From Candidatus Omnitrophota bacterium (GTDB lineage: Bacteria > Omnitrophota > Gorgyraeia > Gygaellales > Profunditerraquicolaceae), in assembly GCA_043800555.1 (NCBI GenBank), contig JAZDMX010000023.1, positions 9,101-73,100 of the forward strand: DNA of 64,000 nt. The letters are read 5' to 3'. Made by a program: the position numbers and the translations under genes. This document shows positions 11,985 through 47,443 of this stretch, piece after piece. Position 1 is the first letter of the stretch. Each line of letters opens with the position of its first letter. The notes below the pieces were generated by a model. It was not told the DNA's origin, did no database searches, and saw nothing but the letters and a program-made list of their open reading frames with translations.

Positions 11985-12968
11985 TTGCTGCCTGGCTTTA
12001 TTATAATGAACGGCAAAAAGATAAAAAGATACCTGGCGGTAGCGATGTTGGCCGCAGGGCTTGCGTTTATTTTCTTATACACCCGCGGCCATCAAAATAA
12101 CAAGCTCTATCGCCAAGAACATTTGATAATGGGCACGTTTGTGGAGGTCATCTCGCCTGAGCCCAAAGCCGCAAAGATAGTGTTTGACGAAATGCTCCGG
12201 ATCGAAAAACTTTTAAGCAAATACGACCCGCAAAGCGAGGTAGCGAAATTAAACGCCTCCGGCTGCCTGAAGGCAAGCCCGGAAACATTTTATGCCGTAA
12301 AACGATCCCGGGAATTTTGGCAGGCTTCAGACGGGGCGTTTGACATAACCGTGGCCGCGCTTATGGACCTTTGGGGCTTTAGCAACAGGCAGTACCGGGT
12401 CCCTAAAGAAGCGGAAATCAAAAAGGCCTTAAAACTGGTCGGCTCGGATAAAATTATTTTGCAGGAATTTGATAATGTGATACAATTTAAACTTTCCGGC
12501 ATGAAGATTGACCTTGGCGCTATCGCTAAAGGTTACGCGCTTGATTGCGCGTCCAAGAAATTAAAAGAGGCAAAAATCAACAGTTGCCTGATTAATGCCG
12601 GCGGCCAAGTCTTCTGCTTGGGAGAAAGATTCAAAAAGCCCTGGGTAATAGGAGTGGCGGGGCCAAAAAATACGAAGTTAGCCGCGTATTTGGCATTAAA
12701 AGACAAGGTAGTAGCTACTTCCGGAAGCGCCGAGCAGTATTTCATAAAAGGGAAAAAACGCTACTGCCATATATTAAACCCCAAGACCGGTTATCCGGCT
12801 TATTCAGGCATAAGCTCTGTGTCGGTTGTAGCTTGCGACGGCTTGACCGCCGATGCCCTGGCTACGGCAATATTTATACTCGGCAAGGATAAAGGGGAAA
12901 AGTTAGCGCGGAAGTTTAACGGCGCGCAAGTAAAGTTTATCCAGGAAGACAATGTTCAAAATAACTAA
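11985..12968 (+). CDS. apbE: FAD:protein FMN transferase (ApbE family) lipoprotein
   Basis: ApbE-family pattern (HLIMGTFVEV, DLGAIAKGYALD, SGSAEQYF). Confidence 0.75.
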   Translation: MLPGFIIMNGKKIKRYLAVAMLAAGLAFIFLYTRGHQNNKLYRQEHLIMGTFVEVISPEPKAAKIVFDEMLRIEKLLSKYDPQSEVAKLNASGCLKASPETFYAVKRSREFWQASDGAFDITVAALMDLWGFSNRQYRVPKEAEIKKALKLVGSDKIILQEFDNVIQFKLSGMKIDLGAIAKGYALDCASKKLKEAKINSCLINAGGQVFCLGERFKKPWVIGVAGPKNTKLAAYLALKDKVVATSGSAEQYFIKGKKRYCHILNPKTGYPAYSGISSVSVVACDGLTADALATAIFILGKDKGEKLARKFNGAQVKFIQEDNVQNN

Positions 12969-13818
12969 AAAAGAGAATTTAAACAGCGAAGTCATCCGGA
13001 TAAAAGTAGAAGCTCCTTTTATCGCCCGGAAAGCCCGGGCAGGGCAATTTGCGGCAGTCGTTATCGACCAAAACGGAGAACGCATACCGCTGACTTTATC
13101 CGACTGGGACAAAGAGACTGGAGAGATAACCCTGATATTCCAGAAAACGGGTTTTAGCACCAACAGGCTGGCCGGCTTAAATCCCGGAGACAGTATAGCC
13201 CATATCCTGGGCCCGCTGGGCCAGGCCACGGAAATCCGCCCTCAGCATACGCTCCAGGCCCAAGAAGGGCGTTTGAATAATTTTGGCACGGTTTATTGCG
13301 TATCCGGAGGAGTCGGTATCGCCGAAATATACCCGGTAACCAGGGCCTTTAAGGAATCCGGCAGCCGCGTCATCGCGATAATCGGAAGCAGGAATAAAGA
13401 CTTGCTGATACTGGAAAAGGAAATCCGGGAGACCAGCGACGAATTATTCATTACCACCGATGACGGCTCTTACGGGAAAAAGGGCCTGGTCATCGACACG
13501 CTTAAAGACCTGTTCGGAGCCATAGAGAAATCTACTCATACCCAATACCCGGATTTGGTATATTGCATCGGGCCGGTCCCCATGATGCAGGCTGTCGCAA
13601 ATTTTACCAAAGAATACCTGGTGAAAACAATCGCCAGCTTAAACCCGATAATGGTCGATGCAACCGGAATGTGCGGCGCCTGCCGCTGCCACGTAGGCAA
13701 TAAGGAAGTTTTCGCCTGCGTGGATGGCCCGGATTTCGACGCGCACCTGGTGGATTTTGACGAACTGAACCGGCGCTTAAAAACTTTCGCAAAAGAAGAA
13801 AAAAGGATAAAAACGTAA
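12952..13818 (+). CDS. NfnA/SudB/PyrK-like FAD/NAD(P)-binding oxidoreductase subunit with C-terminal [2Fe-2S] cluster
   Basis: Ferredoxin-NADP reductase-like fold. C-terminal cysteine cluster CGACRCHVGNKEVFACVDGPDF. Confidence 0.7.
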   Translation: MFKITKKENLNSEVIRIKVEAPFIARKARAGQFAAVVIDQNGERIPLTLSDWDKETGEITLIFQKTGFSTNRLAGLNPGDSIAHILGPLGQATEIRPQHTLQAQEGRLNNFGTVYCVSGGVGIAEIYPVTRAFKESGSRVIAIIGSRNKDLLILEKEIRETSDELFITTDDGSYGKKGLVIDTLKDLFGAIEKSTHTQYPDLVYCIGPVPMMQAVANFTKEYLVKTIASLNPIMVDATGMCGACRCHVGNKEVFACVDGPDFDAHLVDFDELNRRLKTFAKEEKRIKT

Positions 13819-13820
13819 AA

Positions 13821-15173
13821 ATGGCCGAAGAAAACCAAACGCCGATCAATAAAATGGCAAACAATAAAATGTTCATTTATTTCTCCGAAATGATTGATAA
13901 GCCCGTCTTTGACTCCGATAAGAAGATAATCGGGGAGGCCTATGACATAATACTCAAACCCAGCGCGGTATTCCCTCAATCGGTTTACCTGGTTATCCGC
14001 AAGGGTTTCCTTAACCGTAAATACGCTACAATCGCCTGGGACGATATTAAAGAAATTGATACGCAAAACTTTGAAATTAACCTCAATATCGAAAGGGCCA
14101 AAATCCAGTTCAAAGAAAAACACGACAATAAAGACGAGCTTACCCTCCGGCGAGATATTCTCGACCAACAGGTAGTGGACACCCATAACCATAAGGTAAT
14201 CAGGATTAACGATATCCACCTGCTTTTTGTGGAACGGGCGCTTATGGTCGCCCACGTCGACATAAGCACCCGCGGGCTCATCCGCAGGCTGGGTTTTGAA
14301 AGAATCGCGGACTTTATCATAGGCGCAATTTCCAAGGATTCCGCCTACCTTAAGGAAGAGCACCTCATTTCATGGAAATACATCCAACCGCTCTCGATTA
14401 ATCCGGCAAGCATGACAATTAAGGTAAATGCCCCGGAAAAACAATTCAGCGCCATACCGGCTGCCGACCTGGGAGAGATTTTCCTGGATTTGAACATCAA
14501 GCAGCAAATAACTTTCTTCAGGTCCCTGGATATCAAAACCCGAGCAAGGGTTTTTACGAATATCGACTTTAAAACTCAAAAATCCCTGGTTGAAGACCTG
14601 GAGCCTAAACAGGTGGGGGAATTACTAAACAATATCCCTTCCGATGAAGCTACGGATTTCCTGGAAAAACTTCCCAAATACATGACCGAGCATATTTTGA
14701 CCCTTATTGAAAGCAAGTACGCCAAAAAATTATCCCAGTTATTAGGCTACTCCAGCGATTCCGCCGGAGGGCTGATGACGGCCGAATACACGGTCTTTAC
14801 CAAAAATACCCCGGTTGAATCCGCGCTCAAACAAATCAAAGAGCGCACCTATAAGGCCGAGCCTACGCAATACGTTTACATCGTCGATGAGAATAACCGC
14901 CTCCTGGGAACGACTAATTTCCGCAGGCTGATACTGGCTGACCCCCAAGAAACGATCCAGAACGTCGCCTTTCCCAAAACCTATTTCGTGCATTTAGATT
15001 CAAGCGTAAAAGAAGTGGCTTACCTTATGGAAAAATATAAATATTACACCATCCCGGTAGTCGATGAGAACCACGCGCTGCAGGGGATAATAACGGTGGA
15101 TGATATATTAAGCCAACTAATCGCTTTTGCCTGGAGAAGGCTTAAAAAAATCAAGATATTTTCCAAGGAATAA
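13821..15173 (+). CDS. Soluble MgtE-N/CBS-pair protein with N-terminal PRC-barrel-like repeats (no membrane domain)
   Basis: MgtE_N-like helical region and two CBS domains (MTAEYTVFTKNTP, TIPVVDENHALQGIITVDDIL). The protein ends without any TM segment. The next gene is an Nramp-family transporter. Confidence 0.7.
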   Translation: MAEENQTPINKMANNKMFIYFSEMIDKPVFDSDKKIIGEAYDIILKPSAVFPQSVYLVIRKGFLNRKYATIAWDDIKEIDTQNFEINLNIERAKIQFKEKHDNKDELTLRRDILDQQVVDTHNHKVIRINDIHLLFVERALMVAHVDISTRGLIRRLGFERIADFIIGAISKDSAYLKEEHLISWKYIQPLSINPASMTIKVNAPEKQFSAIPAADLGEIFLDLNIKQQITFFRSLDIKTRARVFTNIDFKTQKSLVEDLEPKQVGELLNNIPSDEATDFLEKLPKYMTEHILTLIESKYAKKLSQLLGYSSDSAGGLMTAEYTVFTKNTPVESALKQIKERTYKAEPTQYVYIVDENNRLLGTTNFRRLILADPQETIQNVAFPKTYFVHLDSSVKEVAYLMEKYKYYTIPVVDENHALQGIITVDDILSQLIAFAWRRLKKIKIFSKE

Positions 15174-15182
15174 CCTTTTATA

Positions 15183-16412
15183 ATGAAAAACGCCTGGAGA
15201 AAAATAATCATATTCCTGTCGGTTATGGGCCCGGGGATCATTACGGCTAACGTCGATAACGATGCCGGCGGCATTACCACTTACTCGGTTGCGGGCGCGC
15301 ATTTCGGCTATTCCCTGGTCTGGTCTTTTGTCCCCATCATCATCGCTTTAGTCATAATCCAGGAGATGTGCTCGCGCATGGCGGTGGTAACCGGCAAAGG
15401 GCTGGCGGATTTAATCCGCGAAGAATTCGGCGTAAGGGTAACTTTTTACGCCATGGCAGTCCTGATACTATCAAACATCTTTAATACCATTTCCGAATTT
15501 GCCGGCATAGCCGCCAGCGCGGAATTATTCGGGATAAGCAAATACATCCTTGTCCCGCTGTGCGCGCTGTTTGTCTGGTGGCTCATCGTAAAGGGCACCT
15601 ATAAATCCGTGGAGAAAGTATTCCTGCTGGCTTGTTTATTCTATGTTTCCTATATTATCTCCGGGTTTTTGTCCAAGCCGGACTGGAACGCGGTAGTAAA
15701 TAACTCCATCAAGCCGGCCATTCATTTCGACAAAGCTTACCTGCTTATGCTTATAGGGGTAATCGGCACGACAATCGCGCCCTGGATGCAATTTTACCAA
15801 CAGTCATCGGTGGTAGAAAAAGACATAAAGATGGAAAACTATAAATACAGCCGGCTGGATGTCGTCATCGGGTCTTTTATAGTCAATATAATCGCGGTTT
15901 TTATCGTGATTGTCTGCGCCAACACGCTTTTTGCGCACGGCATAAGGATTGAAACCGCCAAAGACGCGGCGCTTGCCCTTAAGCCGCTGGCCGGGCAATA
16001 CTGCTTCTACCTTTTTGCCTTCGGGCTGCTTAACGCCTCGGTATTCTCGGCGTGCATACTGCCCTTATCAACCGCCTATTCGGTATGCGAAGGCATGGGC
16101 TGGGAAGTGGGGGTAAACCGCCGGTTTAAAGAAGCGCCTCAATTCTATAGCCTCTACACAGCCATTATCATTATCGGGGCAGCCATAATACTTTTACCGA
16201 ACGTAAAGCTCATCCCGATCATGCTTATATCGCAGGCGACTAACGGGATATTGCTTCCTTTTGTCCTGATATTCATGCTGATGCTGGTAAACAATAAAAG
16301 GCTTATGGGCAAATACACAAACTCGCGTATTTATAATTTAATAAGCATAACCGTCATCCTCGCCATGGTCGGGCTTTCTACGGCCTTATTGATAACCGCT
16401 TTCATGAATTAA
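15183..16412 (+). CDS. Nramp (SLC11)-family divalent cation transporter with NRMT-like (Mg2+) site substitutions
   Basis: GPGIITANVDNDAGG aligns to the Nramp TM1 IDPGN motif as D-A-G-G. TIAPWMQF aligns to the TM6 MPH motif with Met->Ala. Confidence 0.75.
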   Translation: MKNAWRKIIIFLSVMGPGIITANVDNDAGGITTYSVAGAHFGYSLVWSFVPIIIALVIIQEMCSRMAVVTGKGLADLIREEFGVRVTFYAMAVLILSNIFNTISEFAGIAASAELFGISKYILVPLCALFVWWLIVKGTYKSVEKVFLLACLFYVSYIISGFLSKPDWNAVVNNSIKPAIHFDKAYLLMLIGVIGTTIAPWMQFYQQSSVVEKDIKMENYKYSRLDVVIGSFIVNIIAVFIVIVCANTLFAHGIRIETAKDAALALKPLAGQYCFYLFAFGLLNASVFSACILPLSTAYSVCEGMGWEVGVNRRFKEAPQFYSLYTAIIIIGAAIILLPNVKLIPIMLISQATNGILLPFVLIFMLMLVNNKRLMGKYTNSRIYNLISITVILAMVGLSTALLITAFMN

Positions 16413-16413
16413 T

Positions 16414-17784
16414 ATGCGCAATAAAATACCTCAACAGAACCCTAAAGAACGCGTTAATAATTTCCTGGAAGTAGCTTTGGGTTTTTCCAGGATTGAGGCT
16501 GAAAAAGAAGCTTCTCGCTGCCTCCAGTGCCAGGAGCCTGCCTGCCTGAAAGGCTGCCCTGTCGGGATAGACATCCCGGGGTTCATAAAGTTGATCAAAG
16601 AAGGCAAACAAAAAAACGCTTTGGATAAAATCAAGGAAAGAAACAACCTCCCGGCGGTCTGCGGCCGCGTCTGCCCGCAAGAGAACCAATGCGAAGCAGC
16701 CTGCATCCTGAATAAGAAAAACGCGCCTATAAACATAGGGGCGCTGGAAAGATACGCCTCGGATTGCCAAACCGATTGCACCGGCCGGTTGCCCATAACG
16801 CCGGCGCTGGAAAAAATAGCGGTGGTCGGTTCCGGGCCTGCCGGCTTGACCTGCGCAGCCGATTTAGCCAAGCTCGGTTTTAAAGTTGCCTTATTCGAGT
16901 CTTTACATATTCCGGGAGGCGTTTTGGTTTACGGTATCCCGGAATTCAGGCTCCCCAAAAAAATAGTGCAAAATGAAGTGGATTACATAAAGGGGCTGGG
17001 GGTGGATATCCGAATTGACACGCTTATCGGCAATACTTTCAGCCTCGAGGACTTACGCCAAGAAGGCTTCAAGGCAATTTTTCTGGCGACAGGGGCCGGA
17101 TTACCGCAGTTCTTAGGCATTGAAGGGGAAAACCTCCCGGGGGTATATTCCGCTAATGAATTCCTGACCCGGCTAAACTTAATGAAAGCTTATAAATTTC
17201 CCGAATACGCCACCCCTTTAAATATCGGCGAGAAGACAGCGGTCATTGGCGGCGGTAACGTCGCCCTGGACTGCTCAAGAGCCGCCTTAAGGTTAGCCAG
17301 CCGGGTAAAAATTGTTTACCGCAGGGGCCAAAATGAAATGCCCGGCCGCCGGGAAGAAGTGGAAAACGCCAAAGAAGAAGGCGTAGAATTTCACCTGCTG
17401 ACGCAACCGGTTAAAGTTCTCGCTAATGGAGACGGGTCTGTTAAAGGCCTGGAATGCATTAAAATGGAATTGGGAGAGCCTGAGGCGACCGGAAGAAGAA
17501 GGCCGGTTCCGCTGAAAGATTCGGCCTTTTTCCTGGAGGCCGATACGGTTATCATAGCTATAGGCCAAAACCCAAACCCCCTTTTGCCTAAAGCAACCCA
17601 GGGGCTAGTAACAAATAACGATGGGACAATCAAGGTGGATGACAATTTCATGACATCCCTACCGGGCGTATTTGCCGGCGGAGACATCATAAGCGGCGCC
17701 GACACGGTAATCTCGGCAATGGGCGCCGGAAAGAAAGCGGCCCTGGCGATAGAAAAATACATAAAGGATAAAAATGGAAAATAA
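16414..17784 (+). CDS. Glutamate synthase small-chain-like NAD(P)H oxidoreductase (GltD/NfnB/SudA family)
   Basis: Two N-terminal Fe-S cysteine clusters (CLQCQEPACLKGCP; CGRVCPQENQCEAAC). FAD and NAD(P) Rossmann motifs (VVGSGPAGL; VIGGGNVALD). Confidence 0.8.
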   Translation: MRNKIPQQNPKERVNNFLEVALGFSRIEAEKEASRCLQCQEPACLKGCPVGIDIPGFIKLIKEGKQKNALDKIKERNNLPAVCGRVCPQENQCEAACILNKKNAPINIGALERYASDCQTDCTGRLPITPALEKIAVVGSGPAGLTCAADLAKLGFKVALFESLHIPGGVLVYGIPEFRLPKKIVQNEVDYIKGLGVDIRIDTLIGNTFSLEDLRQEGFKAIFLATGAGLPQFLGIEGENLPGVYSANEFLTRLNLMKAYKFPEYATPLNIGEKTAVIGGGNVALDCSRAALRLASRVKIVYRRGQNEMPGRREEVENAKEEGVEFHLLTQPVKVLANGDGSVKGLECIKMELGEPEATGRRRPVPLKDSAFFLEADTVIIAIGQNPNPLLPKATQGLVTNNDGTIKVDDNFMTSLPGVFAGGDIISGADTVISAMGAGKKAALAIEKYIKDKNGK

Positions 17785-39192: not shown

Positions 39193-40331
39193 TTCTTGGA
39201 TTTCGATATTCCTTTTTGCAAATCCAGCACTAGCTTATGCCTTCTCTCCTTCTCCTGCCTGGATACCGTATCCGCCATCTTAAAGGCTGCGGTATGAGGG
39301 CGGGGAGAATATTTGAATATAAAGGCGGCGTTAAACCGGACAGATTTTACCAGGCTAAGGGTATCTTTGAAATCAGCTTCATCCTCGGCCGGGAAACCAA
39401 CGATTATATCGGTTGTCAGCGCGCCCCCCTTTACAATTTTACGATAATTATCCGCTAAATCCAAATAGTATTTTCTGGAATACCCGCGGTTCATAAGCTT
39501 CAGGATCCGGTCCGAGCCGGATTGAGCCGGCAGATGCAGGTATTTCTTCAGTTTCCCGGCGCCTGCCATAGCCTGAAACAATTCTTTCCCGGCATCTTTC
39601 GGGTGAGAAGTGATAAACCCGAATTCCTTCAAGCCCTTAATAGCGTTAACCATTTCGATAAGCTTAACGAAATCAACTCCCTGGCTCCGGAAGGAATTCA
39701 CGTTCTGGCCCAATAAAGTAAATGCGGTAATGCCCTTATCTACGGCGCTCTCTATCTCCCTGATTATATCTTCGGGCTTGCGGTGGCGTAAATTCCCGCG
39801 GCTATAAGGAACAACACAGTAAGAGCAAAAGTTAGAGCAACCTTCGGAGATGACCACAAAAGAATGGTTTTTATCCCGGTAGAAACCGGTATGGTAAATT
39901 TCTTCCGGCCTGGCATCCCCGTCAGTCTCCCATATTTTACGCTCAAAGGCCTTTTGATCCCGGGAAAGTTTTTGGATAATATGGGGTATTTTAGCGATAT
40001 CCGCCGGGCCAACCACAAAATCAATGTTCGGCGAGCGTTCAAATGCCGTGTTCTGGTAATTCTGGGCCATGCAGCCTATAAGCCCGATAAGCGGCTTATT
40101 CTTACCGGCCTTGGCGGCAACCCTGCCGATCTCTGACCAGGCCTTATCTTCCGCGTGCTGGCGCACAGAACAGGTATTAATGATTATTATGCCAGCCTTA
40201 TCCGGATCATCGCAGATCTCATACCCTGATCCCTGTAATAACCCAGCCACTACCTCGGAATCCCGGATGTTCATCTGGCACCCGAAGGTGCGGACAAAAA
40301 CTTTCTTTTTTTGTATCTCTTTATTAATCAT
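39189..40331 (-). CDS. miaB: tRNA methylthiotransferase (MiaB/RimO-like radical SAM MTTase), short form without a clear TRAM domain
   Basis: MTTase N-domain (VFVRTFGCQMN...IIINTCSV). Radical SAM CxxxCxxC (CSNFCSYC). It lies next to miaA. Confidence 0.7.
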   Translation of the reverse strand: MINKEIQKKKVFVRTFGCQMNIRDSEVVAGLLQGSGYEICDDPDKAGIIIINTCSVRQHAEDKAWSEIGRVAAKAGKNKPLIGLIGCMAQNYQNTAFERSPNIDFVVGPADIAKIPHIIQKLSRDQKAFERKIWETDGDARPEEIYHTGFYRDKNHSFVVISEGCSNFCSYCVVPYSRGNLRHRKPEDIIREIESAVDKGITAFTLLGQNVNSFRSQGVDFVKLIEMVNAIKGLKEFGFITSHPKDAGKELFQAMAGAGKLKKYLHLPAQSGSDRILKLMNRGYSRKYYLDLADNYRKIVKGGALTTDIIVGFPAEDEADFKDTLSLVKSVRFNAAFIFKYSPRPHTAAFKMADTVSRQEKERRHKLVLDLQKGISKSKK

Positions 40332-40408
40332 GTTGTTGTAAAGATGCTAGCGTCTCGGGGCTTTGTCACGTACGTTCATTGGTTCCATTCAAAAATAAAA
40401 CAATATCT

Positions 40409-41692
40409 TTATTCTGCATTATTGCCAATTTTAATTTCTCTAAGCACTGCTTTTACTAATTCTTTTCCTTGTAATCCACCAATTTGATGTTTTTTGATAA
40501 TTTTTTCAAGATCATATTCGTCTTTATCAATTACTATAATATTTCTCGGTAGAATTACATAATCTGGATGGTTATCTATAGCATTTGAAATTATTAAACT
40601 ATCATTAGAATATCTTCCGATAAGATTATGAATTTTTGCAGCAATAACATATCCCTTATAAGGAAACAAAAAGTCAATTTCGCCAGCTAAAATATTCCCG
40701 CCACCTTTCGAGCAATCAAAGAATGCATCTGCCTTTTCCACAGTCCAAGTTCCAGAGCCCATTAGAAGCTTATTTGGCATTAATTCAGAGAAAACTTTTA
40801 ATGCTTTTATATAATCTTTTTCTATCATTAAAATTTTGAGCATGCTGTTTGATTTCTCATAATATCGTAGATCTAGATAAAGCTTATAACAAGCCGGCTG
40901 TTCTACGGCCATTTCAGCCAAAACCCTTCGTTCCTCTGGAGACAATACTCTATGAGCAAATAAATTAGCTAGGCCTTCAGCAAAGTTTATATCATTTATA
41001 TATTTTGAATCGCTTGTTATTGGCCAATTATCGGGCAAGAGATTTGATAATGAATAATGGTGCCCTAATTCGTGTATTAATGTTACACGAAATAAAGCTT
41101 TCTCTAAATCTGTAATTTTTTCATCTGCAAGCCTAGTTTTTAGCTTATTCGAAAGTTTTTCAATTAATTCAGGACGAATTACTACATAACAACCTCCTTT
41201 GACAAGTTTAATACCCATAAACTCCAAGTCTTGCGGTAGCATACTCCAATAAGCAAGAGGCGTTTCTAAAGTAACTCGCTTTTGTTTTAATAATAGCTGT
41301 CTTATGCCTTTGTCATCTAGCCCCTGAATTTTTTTAAAGTCATTAATTCCTAATTCTATATCTTCCTTTGAATTAGTCTTTTCGTCAGTGAACAAACTAT
41401 AATCTTTTTCGTCTAAGACTAAAATAGCATATAGTGGTTGCTTAACAATGCCTAGAACCTCATTAGCATCTTCAATCTTAGGACTCAAAGGTTTAATAAT
41501 TCCCTCAACTAAATCGGCGTACTCTTTAACATTTTCTGAGTAAAGAATTTGCTGGGTACATAGGCCGGGAGTTTCTTTCTTCTGCAATTTATTATCCGCC
41601 CTCATTTGATTCCTCTCCTTCCTATGATAACCACTAGCAAGACAGCCATTTAACATCAATAAACCAACTAAAAGGCAAATTAAACTTTTCAT
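40409..41692 (-). CDS. Predicted zinc-metallopeptidase-like lipoprotein (HExxH) in a low-GC island
   Basis: Lipobox LMLNGC. HELGHH, then a glutamate about 25 residues downstream (EGLANLFA), the zincin arrangement. Local GC is clearly lower than the flanks. Confidence 0.45.
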   Translation of the reverse strand: MKSLICLLVGLLMLNGCLASGYHRKERNQMRADNKLQKKETPGLCTQQILYSENVKEYADLVEGIIKPLSPKIEDANEVLGIVKQPLYAILVLDEKDYSLFTDEKTNSKEDIELGINDFKKIQGLDDKGIRQLLLKQKRVTLETPLAYWSMLPQDLEFMGIKLVKGGCYVVIRPELIEKLSNKLKTRLADEKITDLEKALFRVTLIHELGHHYSLSNLLPDNWPITSDSKYINDINFAEGLANLFAHRVLSPEERRVLAEMAVEQPACYKLYLDLRYYEKSNSMLKILMIEKDYIKALKVFSELMPNKLLMGSGTWTVEKADAFFDCSKGGGNILAGEIDFLFPYKGYVIAAKIHNLIGRYSNDSLIISNAIDNHPDYVILPRNIIVIDKDEYDLEKIIKKHQIGGLQGKELVKAVLREIKIGNNAE

Positions 41693-41769
41693 ATTCTTAA
41701 GTTTCTAATTCTTTAACTAACTCATTTATTCGTAGTTATTTAGCTTCTTCAATATCCCCAAAATCATCA

Positions 41770-41945
41770 CGCGGTACTTACACCAACGGTCAGCCGAAAG
41801 TCCGGATGAAAACTTTTTTCTTATCTTCTTTCATATTTATGCCTTATGGTATCGTGCAAAAGTGTCTAAAACTGTATAGTAGAAGCTGTTCTATACATCT
41901 TTTGTCTGCTTCAAATATTATCTCTAGGAATCTTTCAAATTGCGT
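41770..41945. repeat. Internally deleted partial copy of the element at 43120-43640 (segments R1, TGTCTAAAACTGT box, R2)
   Basis: 41800-41835 ~ 43170-43205 (35/36 nt). 41864-41900 ~ 43240-43278. 41902-41945 ~ 43577-43620. Confidence 0.7.
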
Positions 41946-42023
41946 TATTTCTTTACAAAATCTTGCCTCGAAACAAAAACCCAGGCACTTTAAAACGCCT
42001 GGGTTAATCGATCCTGATGCCTT

Positions 42024-42353
42024 TTAAATTCCAGCTTTCTTAAAAGTGCCTTTGACGAATTCGAGATACTCAAGGCCATCCTTCTCTCCTACAAAAAATC
42101 CGCCGTCATAAAGATTAACATTTCGCTCCTGCCTCATCTTATTGCCAAGCACGAGAATATCTTCATCCTTAAGTAATTGACTCAGCTTCTCCAAAATCTT
42201 CACATGATGGCCGGCTGTGCTTCTTACTTTATAGCCTTTCTTGGCAATCAGCATAATGCCCAGCTTAATAAGGGCGTCGTAGCAGAATTTGAAAACAACG
42301 CCGGGGATATCCGACTCTTTAGCGATTTTAAGATCGTGCAAAACAGAACGCAA
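42024..42353 (-). CDS. HEPN-domain protein (toxin-like partner of the adjacent nucleotidyltransferase)
   Basis: Small all-helical protein with an R-x4-HH motif (RSTAGHH), immediately downstream of an MNT gene. Confidence 0.5.
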   Translation of the reverse strand: MRSVLHDLKIAKESDIPGVVFKFCYDALIKLGIMLIAKKGYKVRSTAGHHVKILEKLSQLLKDEDILVLGNKMRQERNVNLYDGGFFVGEKDGLEYLEFVKGTFKKAGI

Positions 42354-42415
42354 AAACTGATCAATCTGCTTTTATTGAAATGTTAGCTTTTGAAAATATT
42401 GGCTCTCGAAATGAA

Positions 42416-43000
42416 TCATACAAGCCTTACAGTTTTAGTTTTGAAGACGCTGTTTATAAAATGGCTCTTATCTTTTTTCTTTGCCTCAAATTCCTTCGGG
42501 TTTAGATTCGTCACATTAAATTCCCGGCCTGCATCTTTTTGCAGCTTAGCAATAATCCTCTGCAATTCTAAAATGGAATGTGTGCCGATAGCCAGCAGGT
42601 CGATATCGCTTGACGATCCCATTTTGTTGCTTGCGTACGAACCGAACAAATAAGCTTCTTTAATCCCTTTGATACCGCTTAACGCATCTTTGAGTTTCTT
42701 TTCTATGCCATGAGTTTTTAAGAATATCTGACGGTAATGCTCCAAAACCGGGTTATCTTTTGCAAGAAAGAAATACCTTTGTTTCCCGCGAAATTCGCTC
42801 TTGAAAAGCCCCTCTTTTTCCAATTCCTTAAGCTTGGTTTCGGTATTCTTAGGATCAATTTCTAAAATCCTGGCCAGCTCATTAATATAGACTTGAGCCT
42901 CCGGATTAAGGAAATAGTAATCCAGTAATTTTATTGCCACTTTTGAACGTAAGGATATCATCTTTTCACCATGGTTATGGTAATAAATTACCATAACCAA
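42416..43000 (-). CDS. Minimal nucleotidyltransferase (MNT) with N-terminal winged-helix domain
   Basis: GSYASNKMGSSSDIDLLAI is the Pol-beta-type NTase GS...D.D motif. An N-terminal wHTH is present. Confidence 0.65.
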   Translation of the reverse strand: MVMVIYYHNHGEKMISLRSKVAIKLLDYYFLNPEAQVYINELARILEIDPKNTETKLKELEKEGLFKSEFRGKQRYFFLAKDNPVLEHYRQIFLKTHGIEKKLKDALSGIKGIKEAYLFGSYASNKMGSSSDIDLLAIGTHSILELQRIIAKLQKDAGREFNVTNLNPKEFEAKKKDKSHFINSVFKTKTVRLV

Positions 43001-43119
43001 TTATTTTGTCAAGTAAATTACGGTTCAAGGCATAATCCATCAAATCCTGCTTTGTCCTTATCAATCCCTATCGCCTTTCCTAACCTTCAACAATATCAAC
43101 GGGTTCTGTTTACCAGATG

Positions 43120-43205
43120 TTGCTCAAATACGTCAGAATAGTCGTATAATACTGCTTCCATCGGCCAGCCCAGAGTCCGAATGAAAACTTTTTTCTTATC
43201 TTCTT
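43120..43205. repeat. Repeat segment R3/R1 (TCCATCGGCCAGCC core, then ...GAATGAAAACTTTTTTCTTATCTTCTTTCATAT)
   Basis: Shares its core with 41775-41835, 44080-44140 and 47491-47548. Confidence 0.6.
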
Positions 43206-43285
43206 TCATATCAGTAGATTATAAATTCTTGCCTATGTGTCTAAAACTGTCAAAGTAGATGAATGTATACGACTATCACGCGTTT

Positions 43286-43639
43286 TTATTCAACTTTTAT
43301 CGAATTTCTCCATTCCATCAGGTTCTCGATGTCTAAAACTGTAAAAACAGGATAATTCCTGTAATCACGTCGTGGCTTACACCAGCCCTTTGCAATCCAA
43401 TAATAGATTGTCTGACGATGAACCCGTAAGATTCTCGCTGTTTGAGTTAGATTGTATCTTTTGCCCGACCGCCGTGTGAATTCTTGAAAAACTTTTGCAT
43501 CAGCTTGTTCTATCCGGTTATCAATCGCTTGTTCTTTGAGTCTTCGTTCCTCAATAAACTGGTCTAAACATTTTTTATCTGCTTCAAATATTATCTCCAG
43601 AAATCTTTCATATCGCCATTGCTCTTTGTTCCCGCTCAA
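43286..43639 (-). CDS. Excisionase/AlpA-like HTH protein (mobile-element associated)
   Basis: LTQTARILRVHRQTIYYWIAKGW resembles a MerR-superfamily excisionase HTH. Its 5' end is duplicated at 41902-41945. Confidence 0.4.
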   Translation of the reverse strand: MSGNKEQWRYERFLEIIFEADKKCLDQFIEERRLKEQAIDNRIEQADAKVFQEFTRRSGKRYNLTQTARILRVHRQTIYYWIAKGWCKPRRDYRNYPVFTVLDIENLMEWRNSIKVE

Positions 43640-43826
43640 ACCATTTTTTAAAACTGTTCATTAAGCACCCCCATTTATTTTGAACGTTTCGCTCTCTTAG
43701 GATTCTTACCTTTTGTTATTAACTTTCGCGAAGGCCCTTCCATCTTATTGATGCGCTCAGAAAGTATTTTTACCTCTTGTTTTAACGCTTTTATTTCGTT
43801 CTCAAGGTTTTGCGTCGCTGATATTA

Positions 43827-44042
43827 CTAAAATACTGGCCGATCCTGTATTAGTATAGGAAAAAACATAGAGAAAACACCCCGAAGTAGCCGCATAAATT
43901 CTTCCAATTCCTTATCATCTGCCTTATTAGCGGCATCTTGCCTCTGCCTGAACGAAGACAAAAAATCGATAAACTTCTTGCCCTGAACATCGGCAATAGC
44001 CTCCTTACAGGCACTTATCAATTTTTCGCTTAATTTTGACAT
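43827..44042 (-). CDS. Hypothetical small protein; a coiled-coil reading frame continues downstream in another frame (possible disrupted mobile-element gene)
   Basis: The minus strand at 43640-43826 translates in another frame to ...LENEIKALKQEVKILSERINKMEGPSRK. Confidence 0.25.
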   Translation of the reverse strand: MSKLSEKLISACKEAIADVQGKKFIDFLSSFRQRQDAANKADDKELEEFMRLLRGVFSMFFPILIQDRPVF

Positions 44043-44162: not shown

Positions 44163-44756
44163 CTATGATGGTTTAAGTATCCCTCCCGATACTATTAGTT
44201 TTATGCCTTCCTCCGCTGACATTTGTAAAAACTTTACCGCATTTTTGGGCACTAAGATGAAAAAGCCGCTCCACGGACTAGGGGTTGAGCCAATAAGCAC
44301 ATGCACGAGTTCCTGCCCTGTTAATTCCTGCGCCTCCCTAAACCCATCATTAGTCATAAAACCTACTGACCAAATTCCTTTTGAAGGATATTCTACCAAA
44401 ACTACCTTTTTAAACACCTTTTTATCCTTGGAAAAAATAAAAACGACTATTTGTTTAATAGGCGGATATACCTGCCGGACGCCGGGAAGCTTAAGGAACC
44501 ATCTTTCTATTAAAGGAAGCGCCTTTTTTCCCAATAGGTGAGAAACAACAAATCCTGTTAATAGAATTATTAGGATTGCTATAATGAAACCTAACCCGGG
44601 AATTGAAAAACCAAACTCTGCCTTTAAATGGCTATTGATAATTCTGCCGATGATATTATCAATCAGTCTGAAAATAATAACAAGAAGATATAGGGTGAGA
44701 AAAATCGGCAGAATAGTAAGCAATCCGGCGATAAAATATCGTTTTAATTTACTCAT
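44163..44756 (-). CDS. DUF502-family membrane protein
   Basis: Two N-terminal TM helices (LLTILPIFLTLYLLVIIF; FIIAILIILLTGFVV) and a family-typical pattern (GFSIPGLGF...LGKK...VRQVYPPIKQI). ATGA-coupled to the ATPase stop. Confidence 0.65.
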   Translation of the reverse strand: MSKLKRYFIAGLLTILPIFLTLYLLVIIFRLIDNIIGRIINSHLKAEFGFSIPGLGFIIAILIILLTGFVVSHLLGKKALPLIERWFLKLPGVRQVYPPIKQIVVFIFSKDKKVFKKVVLVEYPSKGIWSVGFMTNDGFREAQELTGQELVHVLIGSTPSPWSGFFILVPKNAVKFLQMSAEEGIKLIVSGGILKPS

Positions 44757-47443
44757 GAAAAATCCTCCTTTTGTTTCCATTTCCAAGCCTCCATTGCCCA
44801 CAAAGGAAGCGAAGAGATCCCAAGCACAAGCCCCCAATCAAATAACCCCAGCGGCTCGGTCTTAAATACCTTCTGCAAAAAAGGCGTATACACTACCATC
44901 ATCTGCAAAAGAAACGACACGAAAGTCGCCAGAACTAGTTTTTTATTCGTAAACGCTCCTAATTTAAACAAGGATTCGGTCATGCTTCTGCAGTTAAAAG
45001 AATGGAATAACTGTGAGCATGCAAGCACAATAAAAGCCGCAGTCCTTGCCCGGGCAATGCCTTCTTTTTCGATGTAAAGGACAAATACAAATGCCAGTAA
45101 ACTGCAAAAGGCGATAAAAGAACCCTGCATCAACATTAACATCGCCCGTTCTTTTGTGACCACCGCTTCCGTGGATTTACGCGGAGGCCGCTTCATGATA
45201 TTGGGGTCAACAGGATCAACTCCCAAAGCGAGCGCAGGCAGCCCGTCGGTTACAAGATTAACCCATAAGATATGTATCGGCAATAACGGCGCGGGAAGCC
45301 CAATCAAAGATGATACAAACATAACCAGTATCTCACCGACGTTGCATGAAAGAAGATAGTGGATAAATTTTTTTATATTATCGTAAATACCCCTTCCCTC
45401 TTCTACTGCCGCGACAATCGAAGCAAAATTATCGTCAGTTACAACCATGTCTGATACTTCTTTAGTAACATCTGTCCCGGTAATGCCCATGGCAACACCG
45501 ATATCGGCCTCTTTGACCGCCGGAGCATCGTTAACACCGTCTCCGGTCATAGCTACGACTTCGCCATGCCTGCGCCAAGCACGCACAACCTTTAATTTAT
45601 GCTCTGGAGAAACCCTGGCATACACCGAGATATTCCTAACTTCTTTATAAAGCTCATCGTCGCTTAATTTATCCAGTTCTTCACCGCTTAATGCTAAAGA
45701 ATCATCATTAAAGAATCCAAGTGCTCGCGCAATAGCGACTGCCGTATTCTTATGATCACCGGTAATCATTACCGTTTTTATGCCAGCGGCCTTACATTCC
45801 TGTATAGCTTTTTTTACTTCCTCGCGGGGCGGGTCTATCATCGCAACTAAACCCACAAATGTAAGCTCCCTTTCGATAATCTTTGCGTCGTGCTTTTCAT
45901 GACTTTTATCCAACTCTCTATAAGCAACTGCCAGCACCCGCATCGCCTCGCCTGCCAATTCGTTATTAATCTTTCGGATACTTGCTCTATCCTGCTCGGT
46001 TAGCTTTCTAACAGCACCATTTTCTTCAATGTTGATACAATCATCTAAGAGTATATCAGGCGCACCTTTGACAAAAGCGAATGCCTGCTCGCCATGTTCC
46101 CGAATAACCGACATCTTCTTTCGGTCTGAATCAAACGGTATTTCGTCAATCAATAAAAATTCTTTCTCTAATTTCTCTTTGGTTATGCCGGTCTTACCGG
46201 CAACGGTCAAAAGAGACCCTTCGGTCGGATCCCCAATAATTTTATAGACGCCAGAATTATTAACCAACTGCGCCCCATTACACAGCACGCCATAACGTAA
46301 CGTATTCTGCAAATCAGGATAATCAGCGATCAAAATTTGGTTTTTGCTAAACAAAAACGCACCTATAGGTGCGTACCCAATGCCGGTTACTTCAAAGAGC
46401 TTGCCTCCTGTAAATATCTTTTGCACAGTCATTTCATTTTTAGTCAGGGTGCCTGTTTTATCTGAACAGATAACCGTAGCACAACCTAAGGTTTCAACAG
46501 AAGGGAGTTTACGGATAAGCGCTTGACGCCTGACCATCCGGTGGACGCCCAAGGCAAGCGCAATAGTGACTACCGCAGGCATACCTTCCGGGATAGCAGC
46601 GACCGCTAAACTTACCGACGTTAAAAACACATCCACAATCTTACCGCCCCGCAGCCATCCTAGCAGGAATACCATTCCCACCATGACAAAACATAAATAC
46701 ACAATCCACTTACCGAACTCTTCTAATTTCTTCTGTAAAGGTGTAGCCTCATGTACGATTGCCTGTACTAACCCTGCGATTTTCCCCAGCTCTGTCTGCA
46801 TTCCGGTATAAACAACGAGCGCTTTCGCTTTGCCGGATGCAACCGAAGTCCCCATATAAACCATATTTGCCCGATCAGCAAGCGGGATATCTTTTTCTTC
46901 TAAAGCGCGGGCAGTCTTTGCAACAGGCGTCGATTCCCCGGTGAGACTGGCTTCCTGCACGCCAAAATTTGCGCTAATCCAAACAAGGCGACTATCCGCA
47001 GGGACGCTGTCACCGGCTTCAATCTCAATCACATCTCCGGGAACTAACCCTGACGAAGGAACGGCTTTATGCTGACCGTCGCGGATAACTTTTGAAGAGG
47101 GGCTTGATAAACTTTTTAGAGCCGCAAGGGACTTTTCTGCGCGGTATTCCTGGATAAATCCTAAAATCGCGTTTACTATAACAATCGCAATTATGGCGAG
47201 CGAGTCTATCCATTCCTGCAGGAACCCGGAAACAAATGCCGCACCGATAAGAACCCAGACAATAAAATTATGAAATTGTTCTAAGAAAATACTTGCGGGT
47301 GAACGCCCCTTCGCTTCCCTTAATTGATTTGGACCGTACTTATCCAATCTGGTCTTTACTTCCTGGACAGAAAGACCCTGGCTTAGGTTCGCCCCTAGCA
47401 TCTCAATCGCTTCCTGAATATCCAAATGCCACCAATCGTTCAT
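44753..47443 (-). CDS. Calcium-translocating P-type ATPase (P2A/P2B type)
   Basis: Phosphorylation site DKTGTLT, TGES, and the hinge motif [10 protein letters not shown]. Ten predicted TMs. Cation-transporter N-terminal domain. Confidence 0.9.

Follow-up and report, generated by a model that had tools for sequence, protein, structure and literature searches.

We analysed a stretch of 64,000 nucleotides from a Candidatus Omnitrophota metagenome-assembled genome (MAG), hereafter the window, and focus here on two neighbouring genes: one encodes an SLC11/Nramp family transporter, the other a soluble relative of the cytoplasmic part of the Mg2+ channel MgtE. The two open reading frames (ORFs), 13821-15173 and 15183-16412, lie on the + strand, in the same frame, with a gap of 9 nucleotides between them. 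The first product, called the sensor below for short, is 450 amino acids long and 100% identical to a protein on a 79.7-kb contig at NCBI. The features of the locus are as follows (TM, transmembrane helix; EleNRMT, the structurally characterised homologue from Eggerthella lenta; TtMgtE, the T. thermophilus MgtE).

13821-15173, + strand: sensor gene, encoding a soluble, MgtE-like protein of 450 amino acids (NCBI name 'CBS domain-containing protein')
13863-14120, + strand: PRC-barrel domain 1, residues 15-100
14121-14435, + strand: second PRC-like domain, carrying a helical insert, residues 101-205 (from hhalign, the conservation profile and invariant columns)
14436-14759, + strand: MgtE N domain, residues 206-313, with D275 and D279 (PF03448, E = 1.7e-22)
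14760-15095, + strand: CBS pair, residues 314-425 (PF00571, E = 2.5e-16, in two stretches; aligned to the CBS domains of TtMgtE)
15096-15170, + strand: C-terminal helix, placed like the plug helix of MgtE, residues 426-450 (helix 426-449 in the structural model; residue map)
15183-16412, + strand: gene for a transporter of the Nramp-related Mg2+/Mn2+ (NRMT) type, 409 amino acids (PF01566; 7QIA)
15261-15272, + strand: TM1 site, D27-A28-G29-G30 (EleNRMT D55...G58; canonical Nramps DPGN)
15768-15785, + strand: TM6 site, T196-T-I-A199-P-W201 (EleNRMT T224, A227 and W229; canonical Nramps A..M.H)

The transporter shows multiple hydrophobic segments and covers the whole Pfam Nramp profile (PF01566, E = 3.9e-106, positions 1-357 of 357). 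Its top match in the PDB is EleNRMT (7QIA, E = 1.8e-116), to which it is 45.7% identical over 398 residues; the next matches are classical Nramps, with E values no better than 1e-25. A HMMER alignment places the site residues of the two proteins opposite one another (window/EleNRMT: D27/D55, G30/G58, E105/E133, T196/T224, A199/A227, W201/W229, Q351/Q379), and the motifs NDAGGI and IGTTIAPWM are identical in the window transporter and in the EleNRMT structures (7QIA, 7QIC, 7QJI, 7QJJ). The NRMT-type site, DAGG and TIAPW, that a preliminary description of this DNA had read from the sequence does therefore align with D55/G58 and T224/A227/W229 of EleNRMT, and not with the canonical DPGN and MPH. 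The proton-pathway histidines of helix 6b are gone, with W201 and Q206 in the window transporter (W229 and N234 in EleNRMT), and the TM3 glutamate (E105) and TM10 glutamine (Q351), equivalent to E133 and Q379, are kept. On these alignments, the 409-residue protein is a member of the NRMT clade of SLC11/Nramp.

EleNRMT transports Mg2+ and Mn2+, but not Ca2+, and does so without co-transport of H+ (PMC8806188); its T224 is required for Mg2+ and is of much smaller importance for Mn2+. An Mn2+ uptake defect was rescued by the A. capsulatum homologue (PMC4072509). Both results contradict the statement in the preliminary description that NRMTs 'cannot coordinate Mn2+ or Fe2+'. Because of the 46% identity to EleNRMT and the identical site residues, the window transporter is also expected to carry Mg2+ and Mn2+ uncoupled from H+. 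For a divalent-cation carrier without coupling, the driving force is the membrane potential, as for the channels CorA and MgtE, both of which have cytoplasmic Mg2+-sensing gates. NRMTs make up a fourth class of bacterial Mg2+ importer. If it is likewise uncoupled from H+, the NRMT of the window would be driven by the membrane potential, as MgtE and CorA are.

In the sensor, Pfam recognises MgtE_N at residues 213-313 (E = 1.7e-22), followed by the CBS pair (E = 2.5e-16). Ahead of them, residues 18-79 score 20.7 bits against the Pfam PRC profile (PF05239), for a gathering cut-off of 21.2 bits that homologues pass (37.9 bits in one of them, P0125). An internal repeat of this region is detected by hhalign, which matches residues 15-100 to residues 101-205 with a probability of 82% and E = 1e-5; the second PRC-like half repeat lies at about residues 105-150. 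The conservation profile puts the best-conserved stretch of the whole family at residues 114-133 (LDQQVVDTHNHKVIRINDIH), that is, in the second PRC domain and outside the MgtE-like part. An AlphaFold2 model based on 60 diverse homologues reached a predicted local distance difference test (pLDDT) score of 91.3 and a predicted template modelling (pTM) score of 0.77; it replaced an earlier model from 36 close homologues (pLDDT 66), in which the second PRC domain was unresolved. The domain description first proposed, with PRC-barrel repeats, an MgtE N domain and a CBS pair, is thus upheld.

No membrane domain follows these modules. The 19-residue Kyte-Doolittle mean peaks at 1.36 along the sensor, below 1.6; Pfam finds no match to the MgtE pore domain PF01769; and the match to TIGR00400 (mgtE) reaches 166 bits, below the cut-off of 232.75, covering only positions 24-252 of the 450 in the profile. 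The original view that the protein ends without a C-terminal membrane domain is supported on all three counts. Judged by these profiles, the sensor is not an MgtE channel, and the part of MgtE to which it is homologous is confined to the cytoplasmic N and CBS domains. It ends in the helix listed above, which holds D428 and, after it, a basic motif (AWRRLKKIK); the last 25 residues have a net charge of +3. We also considered that the ORF might be a truncated or frameshifted mgtE pseudogene, and rejected this idea: hundreds of homologues stop at the same place, the transporter ORF follows, and close homologues are highly conserved, with a mean column identity of 74%.

Sensor homologues were sought by scanning one genome per species with a 12-sequence sensor alignment. 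This returned 80 loci, comprising three ordinary MgtE channels and 77 pore-less homologues, 76 of which had enough downstream sequence to be judged. An Nramp-family gene lies directly downstream, on the same strand, in 68 of these 76 loci, frequently with start and stop codons overlapping by 4 nucleotides, and one gene away in another (L080). Conversely, a search of metagenomes with EleNRMT found a full-length sensor gene directly upstream in 64 of 66 informative loci (human gut, 72-97% identical to EleNRMT), the two exceptions being ORF-calling artefacts; the NRMT of known structure is thus paired with this partner as well. The co-occurrence in other genomes that the preliminary description had suggested looking for is thus found in both directions.

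The informative loci come from about ten phyla, including Omnitrophota, Elusimicrobiota, Peregrinibacteria, NC10/Methylomirabilota, Bacillota (Desulfosporosinus, Sporomusa, Pelotomaculum and Desulfitobacterium), Desulfobacterota, Acidobacteriota and Actinomycetota (Solirubrobacteraceae, Gaiellaceae, Kitasatospora); Geobacteraceae are also among the hosts. All 69 alignable sensor-linked Nramps, L080 included, carry the TM6 pattern T..A/T/S.(W/Y/F), and their TM1 reads DAGG (DAAG in one). At one surveyed locus, a second Nramp paralogue that is not linked to a sensor shows the canonical DPGN and ATVMPH. The pairing of sensor and NRMT is very strongly conserved.

This pairing, which the preliminary description took to be undescribed, has been known since 2014, and the window locus is a further copy of it, in Omnitrophota. 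Shin et al. (PLoS Genet 10:e1004429; PMC4072509) reported that most NrmT genes adjoin a gene for a homologue of the MgtE cytoplasmic domain, and speculated that this MgtE-like neighbour serves cytoplasmic feedback regulation or, alternatively, has 'metal chaperone activity'. The operons they describe (for example A. capsulatum Acp2976-Acp2977 and the C. acetobutylicum Ca_c0685 operon) have the same gene order as the window, with the sensor gene directly upstream of the NRMT gene. They also noted a split version of the MgtE-like partner in C. acetobutylicum, which resembles one of our surveyed loci (L071), where an ORF with the PRC region only (137 amino acids) precedes an MgtE_N/CBS ORF (254 amino acids). 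The window pair differs from these operons in its setting, an Omnitrophota MAG in which it sits between nfnA- and nfnB-like genes. It differs, too, in what is known of the partner: the 2014 paper, in the text that we consulted, describes a small homologue of the MgtE N-terminal region, with no mention of PRC barrels, whereas the window sensor has them. In the literature that we searched, no paper deals with PRC barrels together with MgtE. The partner is not discussed in the 2022 study of EleNRMT (Ramanadane et al., eLife 11:e74589), in which the transporter was characterised without it.

Comparison with MgtE itself (T. thermophilus 2YVX and 2ZY9; cytoplasmic domains 2YVY, 2OUX, 8GPS and 8GPV) shows what the sensor lacks and what it has in addition: the PF01769 pore is missing, and some 200 extra N-terminal residues form the PRC barrels. 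These barrels are found on true channels as well. Full-length PRC-MgtE channels of about 600 amino acids (P0153, P0164 and P0211, for example) are about 30% identical to residues 19-433 of the window sensor, PRC region included. Unlike the sensor, they have the membrane domain of MgtE at the C terminus, and the three whose gene contexts were sampled stand alone, without a neighbouring Nramp gene. In a clustering by pairwise identity, which is not a proper phylogeny, the channel-type and soluble forms of the PRC, N and CBS architecture are interleaved. Sensors of the Eggerthella type represent a further variant. They are 464 amino acids long (L089, 2506-3900 on the + strand, with similar proteins in L090-L168), are 28% identical to the window sensor and finish in a hydrophobic C-terminal stretch, some 25 residues long (LLKVLGGLVASILFLALYTLVLLQII). 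They are therefore probably tail-anchored membrane proteins, unlike the window sensor with its basic amphipathic end. Similar hydrophobic tails are seen in P0251 and P0262. Predicted anchors of this kind, in some sensors at least, fit a role at the membrane.

Which of the ligands used by MgtE does the sensor keep? We mapped the functional residues of TtMgtE onto the sensor through a HMMER alignment, in which a single numbering offset fits 12 of 12 check residues, and counted their retention in 60 distant homologues (27-60% identical). Both ligands of site Mg4 are retained (D91 and D247 of TtMgtE, D275 and D428 of the sensor), as is the Mg6 ligand D95 (D279). Among the 60 homologues, D275 is kept in 54 and D279 in 59, the overall range for D275, D428 and D279 being 53-59. 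Within one TtMgtE subunit, Mg4 and Mg6 link the N domain to the CBS pair.

The CBS pair of MgtE also binds ATP, and a different signal has to be weighed here: the CBS pair of the partner might respond to adenine nucleotides (ATP or Mg-ATP), rather than the partner to free Mg2+, and activity of the NRMT would then follow the energy state of the cell. Part of the nucleotide site is present, since R187 of TtMgtE is retained as R368 and the aromatic residue at F227 as Y408. However, the ribose ligand D188 has become R369, an arginine that is invariant across the Omnitrophota clade, and F384 takes the place of the adenine ligand N203; the position of F227 is mostly leucine in distant homologues; and the ATP ligands are far less conserved than the acidic ligands of Mg4 and Mg6. 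We regard nucleotide sensing as unlikely.

On balance, we lean towards the view that the two genes form a unit, in which an NRMT for divalent-cation uptake is accompanied by a dedicated cytoplasmic partner exerting Mg2+-dependent negative feedback in trans. The partner would correspond to the entire regulatory part that an MgtE channel with PRC barrels has in the cytoplasm, minus the pore. It would bind Mg2+ where the conserved sites connect the N domain with the CBS pair, and this binding would clamp the two together, as in MgtE. The clamped partner would then dock on the cytoplasmic face of the NRMT and lower uptake when Mg2+ is plentiful, the contact being made through the highly conserved second PRC domain, through the basic C-terminal helix, or through both, while the NRMT would be able to transport without the partner. 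We infer the binding of Mg2+ by the sensor, its contact with the NRMT and the sign of the effect; gating in trans is plausible in light of the kept Mg4 and Mg6 ligands, the predicted absence of H+ coupling and the presence of Mg2+ riboswitches in related operons.

Several observations weigh against this feedback model. In the window clade, the inter-subunit sites of MgtE are replaced, Mg5 by K407 and S431 (D226 and D250 in TtMgtE) and Mg7 by R243 (E59), and the acidic residues of the TtMgtE plug helix that face the pore (E255, E258 and D259) have become F436, R439 and R440, so that several acidic ligands have given way to basic residues. With the plug-helix acids, Mg5 and Mg7 lost, the mechanism of MgtE cannot be transferred unchanged. 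Seven of the 76 sensor genes are orphans without an adjoining transporter, and no M-box (RF00380) was found in the window, whether the gathering threshold or E <= 1 was applied. In the literature that we searched, we found no interaction between a sensor and an NRMT, and no later test of the proposal of Shin et al. NRMTs work alone, both in B. subtilis complementation (PMC4072509) and in proteoliposomes (PMC8806188), and co-expression of A. capsulatum Acp2976 with Acp2977 did not further improve rescue (PMC4072509). This last result carries little weight, since rescue was scored while Mg2+ was limiting, a condition under which no benefit from an inhibitor is to be expected.

The M-box requires further comment, as it bears on the ion to which the system responds. 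Of 11 distant loci, 5, in Bacillota and Desulfobacterota, have this riboswitch immediately upstream of the sensor gene. It is present in many of the NrmT operons, although Shin et al. do not make it a requirement; the window pair is among those without it. Its absence from the window would agree with a system devoted mainly to Mn2+, or to mixed divalent cations, in this organism, with a partner responding to Mn2+ and not to Mg2+. Transport of Mn2+ by EleNRMT (PMC8806188) points the same way, as does the sensor-linked A. capsulatum homologue, which rescued a defect in Mn2+ transport and only partly one in Mg2+ transport (PMC4072509). However, the window transporter retains T196, the equivalent of the EleNRMT T224 that is mainly important for Mg2+, related operons are controlled by Mg2+ riboswitches, and the ligands kept in the sensor are the all-oxygen carboxylates of the millimolar-type MgtE sites. 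An Mn2+ system is thus improbable in our opinion.

Finally, the partner may not be a gate at all: it may chaperone the imported ion or hand it over, act as a positive factor in NRMT assembly, or regulate other targets. Shin et al. themselves offered the chaperone as an alternative (PMC4072509). The seven orphan sensor genes, which stand among housekeeping genes, would be accommodated by such a role, and PRC barrels serve generally as modules for interaction between proteins, CdpB (8qzo) being an example. Against this, NRMTs are active without the partner, which cannot then be an obligatory subunit, and strict adjacency at about 90% of loci, translational overlap and exclusive association with the NRMT motifs indicate a transporter-specific function. 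Free Mg2+ in cells is millimolar, so that an ion chaperone is hard to justify. We give these non-gating roles little credence. The orphan loci themselves (L019, L023, L024, L025, L033, L039 and L068) carry full-length sensors and no Nramp gene within the flanks retrieved; their neighbours include genes for a D-Ala-D-Ala ligase, a radical SAM aminomutase, phosphoenolpyruvate carboxykinase (PEPCK) and an HhH-GPD glycosylase.

Returning to feedback in trans, a more general form of it can be put forward tentatively. The PRC-PRC-N-CBS module could be a portable Mg2+-responsive gate, acting in cis on the MgtE pore and in trans, as a free or tail-anchored protein, on the LeuT-fold NRMT, with the PRC barrels serving for docking. 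We think this extension somewhat less probable than not.

The pair is nested between genes for subunits of an NfnAB/SudBA-type oxidoreductase, both on the + strand: 12952-13818 upstream, encoding an nfnA-like FAD/NAD-binding subunit (PRK06222), and 16414-17784 downstream, encoding a gltA/NfnB-like subunit (TIGR01316), with gaps to the pair of 2 nucleotides and 1 nucleotide, respectively. Genes for the two subunits of NfnAB/SudBA are normally adjacent. The same nesting is seen on the contigs of the closest relatives (P0003, P0005 and P0008). Further Omnitrophota, P0006 (82% identity) and P0069, share the flanking synteny (apbE ... panB) and have the pair, but lack the nfn genes.

When the surroundings of the locus were searched permissively against Rfam, all matches were at chance level, and promoter and terminator scans of the 8-22 kb region were not above shuffled sequence (21 versus 17.9, and 21 versus 22.7, respectively). 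A ZMP/ZTP riboswitch (RF01750, 61.8 bits) was detected at a surveyed locus of Sporomusa aerivorans (L044, 4033-4116, - strand), about 1.8 kb upstream of the pair and oriented the other way, on the opposite strand, and probably has no connection with the pair. Elsewhere in the window, a P-type ATPase gene (44753-47443, - strand) belongs to the Ca2+-transporting PMR1/SERCA type (TIGR01522, 827 bits, above cut-off) and not to the MgtA-type Mg2+ pumps. The G+C content of positions 40001-44000 is 0.36-0.39, compared with about 0.46 in the rest of the window. This segment, which may be foreign DNA, includes a 427-residue ORF without any Pfam match (40409-41692, - strand) and an ORF with a nucleotidyltransferase domain (42416-43000, - strand).

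The window locus is nothing new in kind; it is one more well-defined example of the question posed in 2014. To this the present analysis adds, on the strength of profile comparisons, that the NRMT partner carries PRC barrels conserved across the family and extends beyond a fragment of the MgtE N-terminal region. It also adds the stand-alone PRC-MgtE channels, the split forms, the tail-anchored type of sensor and the nesting of the pair between nfnA- and nfnB-like genes. The survey sharpens the question itself: the partner adjoins nearly every NRMT sampled, EleNRMT included, keeps exactly the intra-subunit Mg2+ ligands of MgtE, has conserved PRC barrels and occurs fused to a channel, free or, it seems, tail-anchored. 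These results define the mutants and constructs with which to ask whether the sensor domain of a channel can regulate an unrelated carrier in trans. If the module does prove to be a portable gate, the biochemistry of EleNRMT and CabNRMT would so far have dealt with the transporter in isolation from its physiological regulator.

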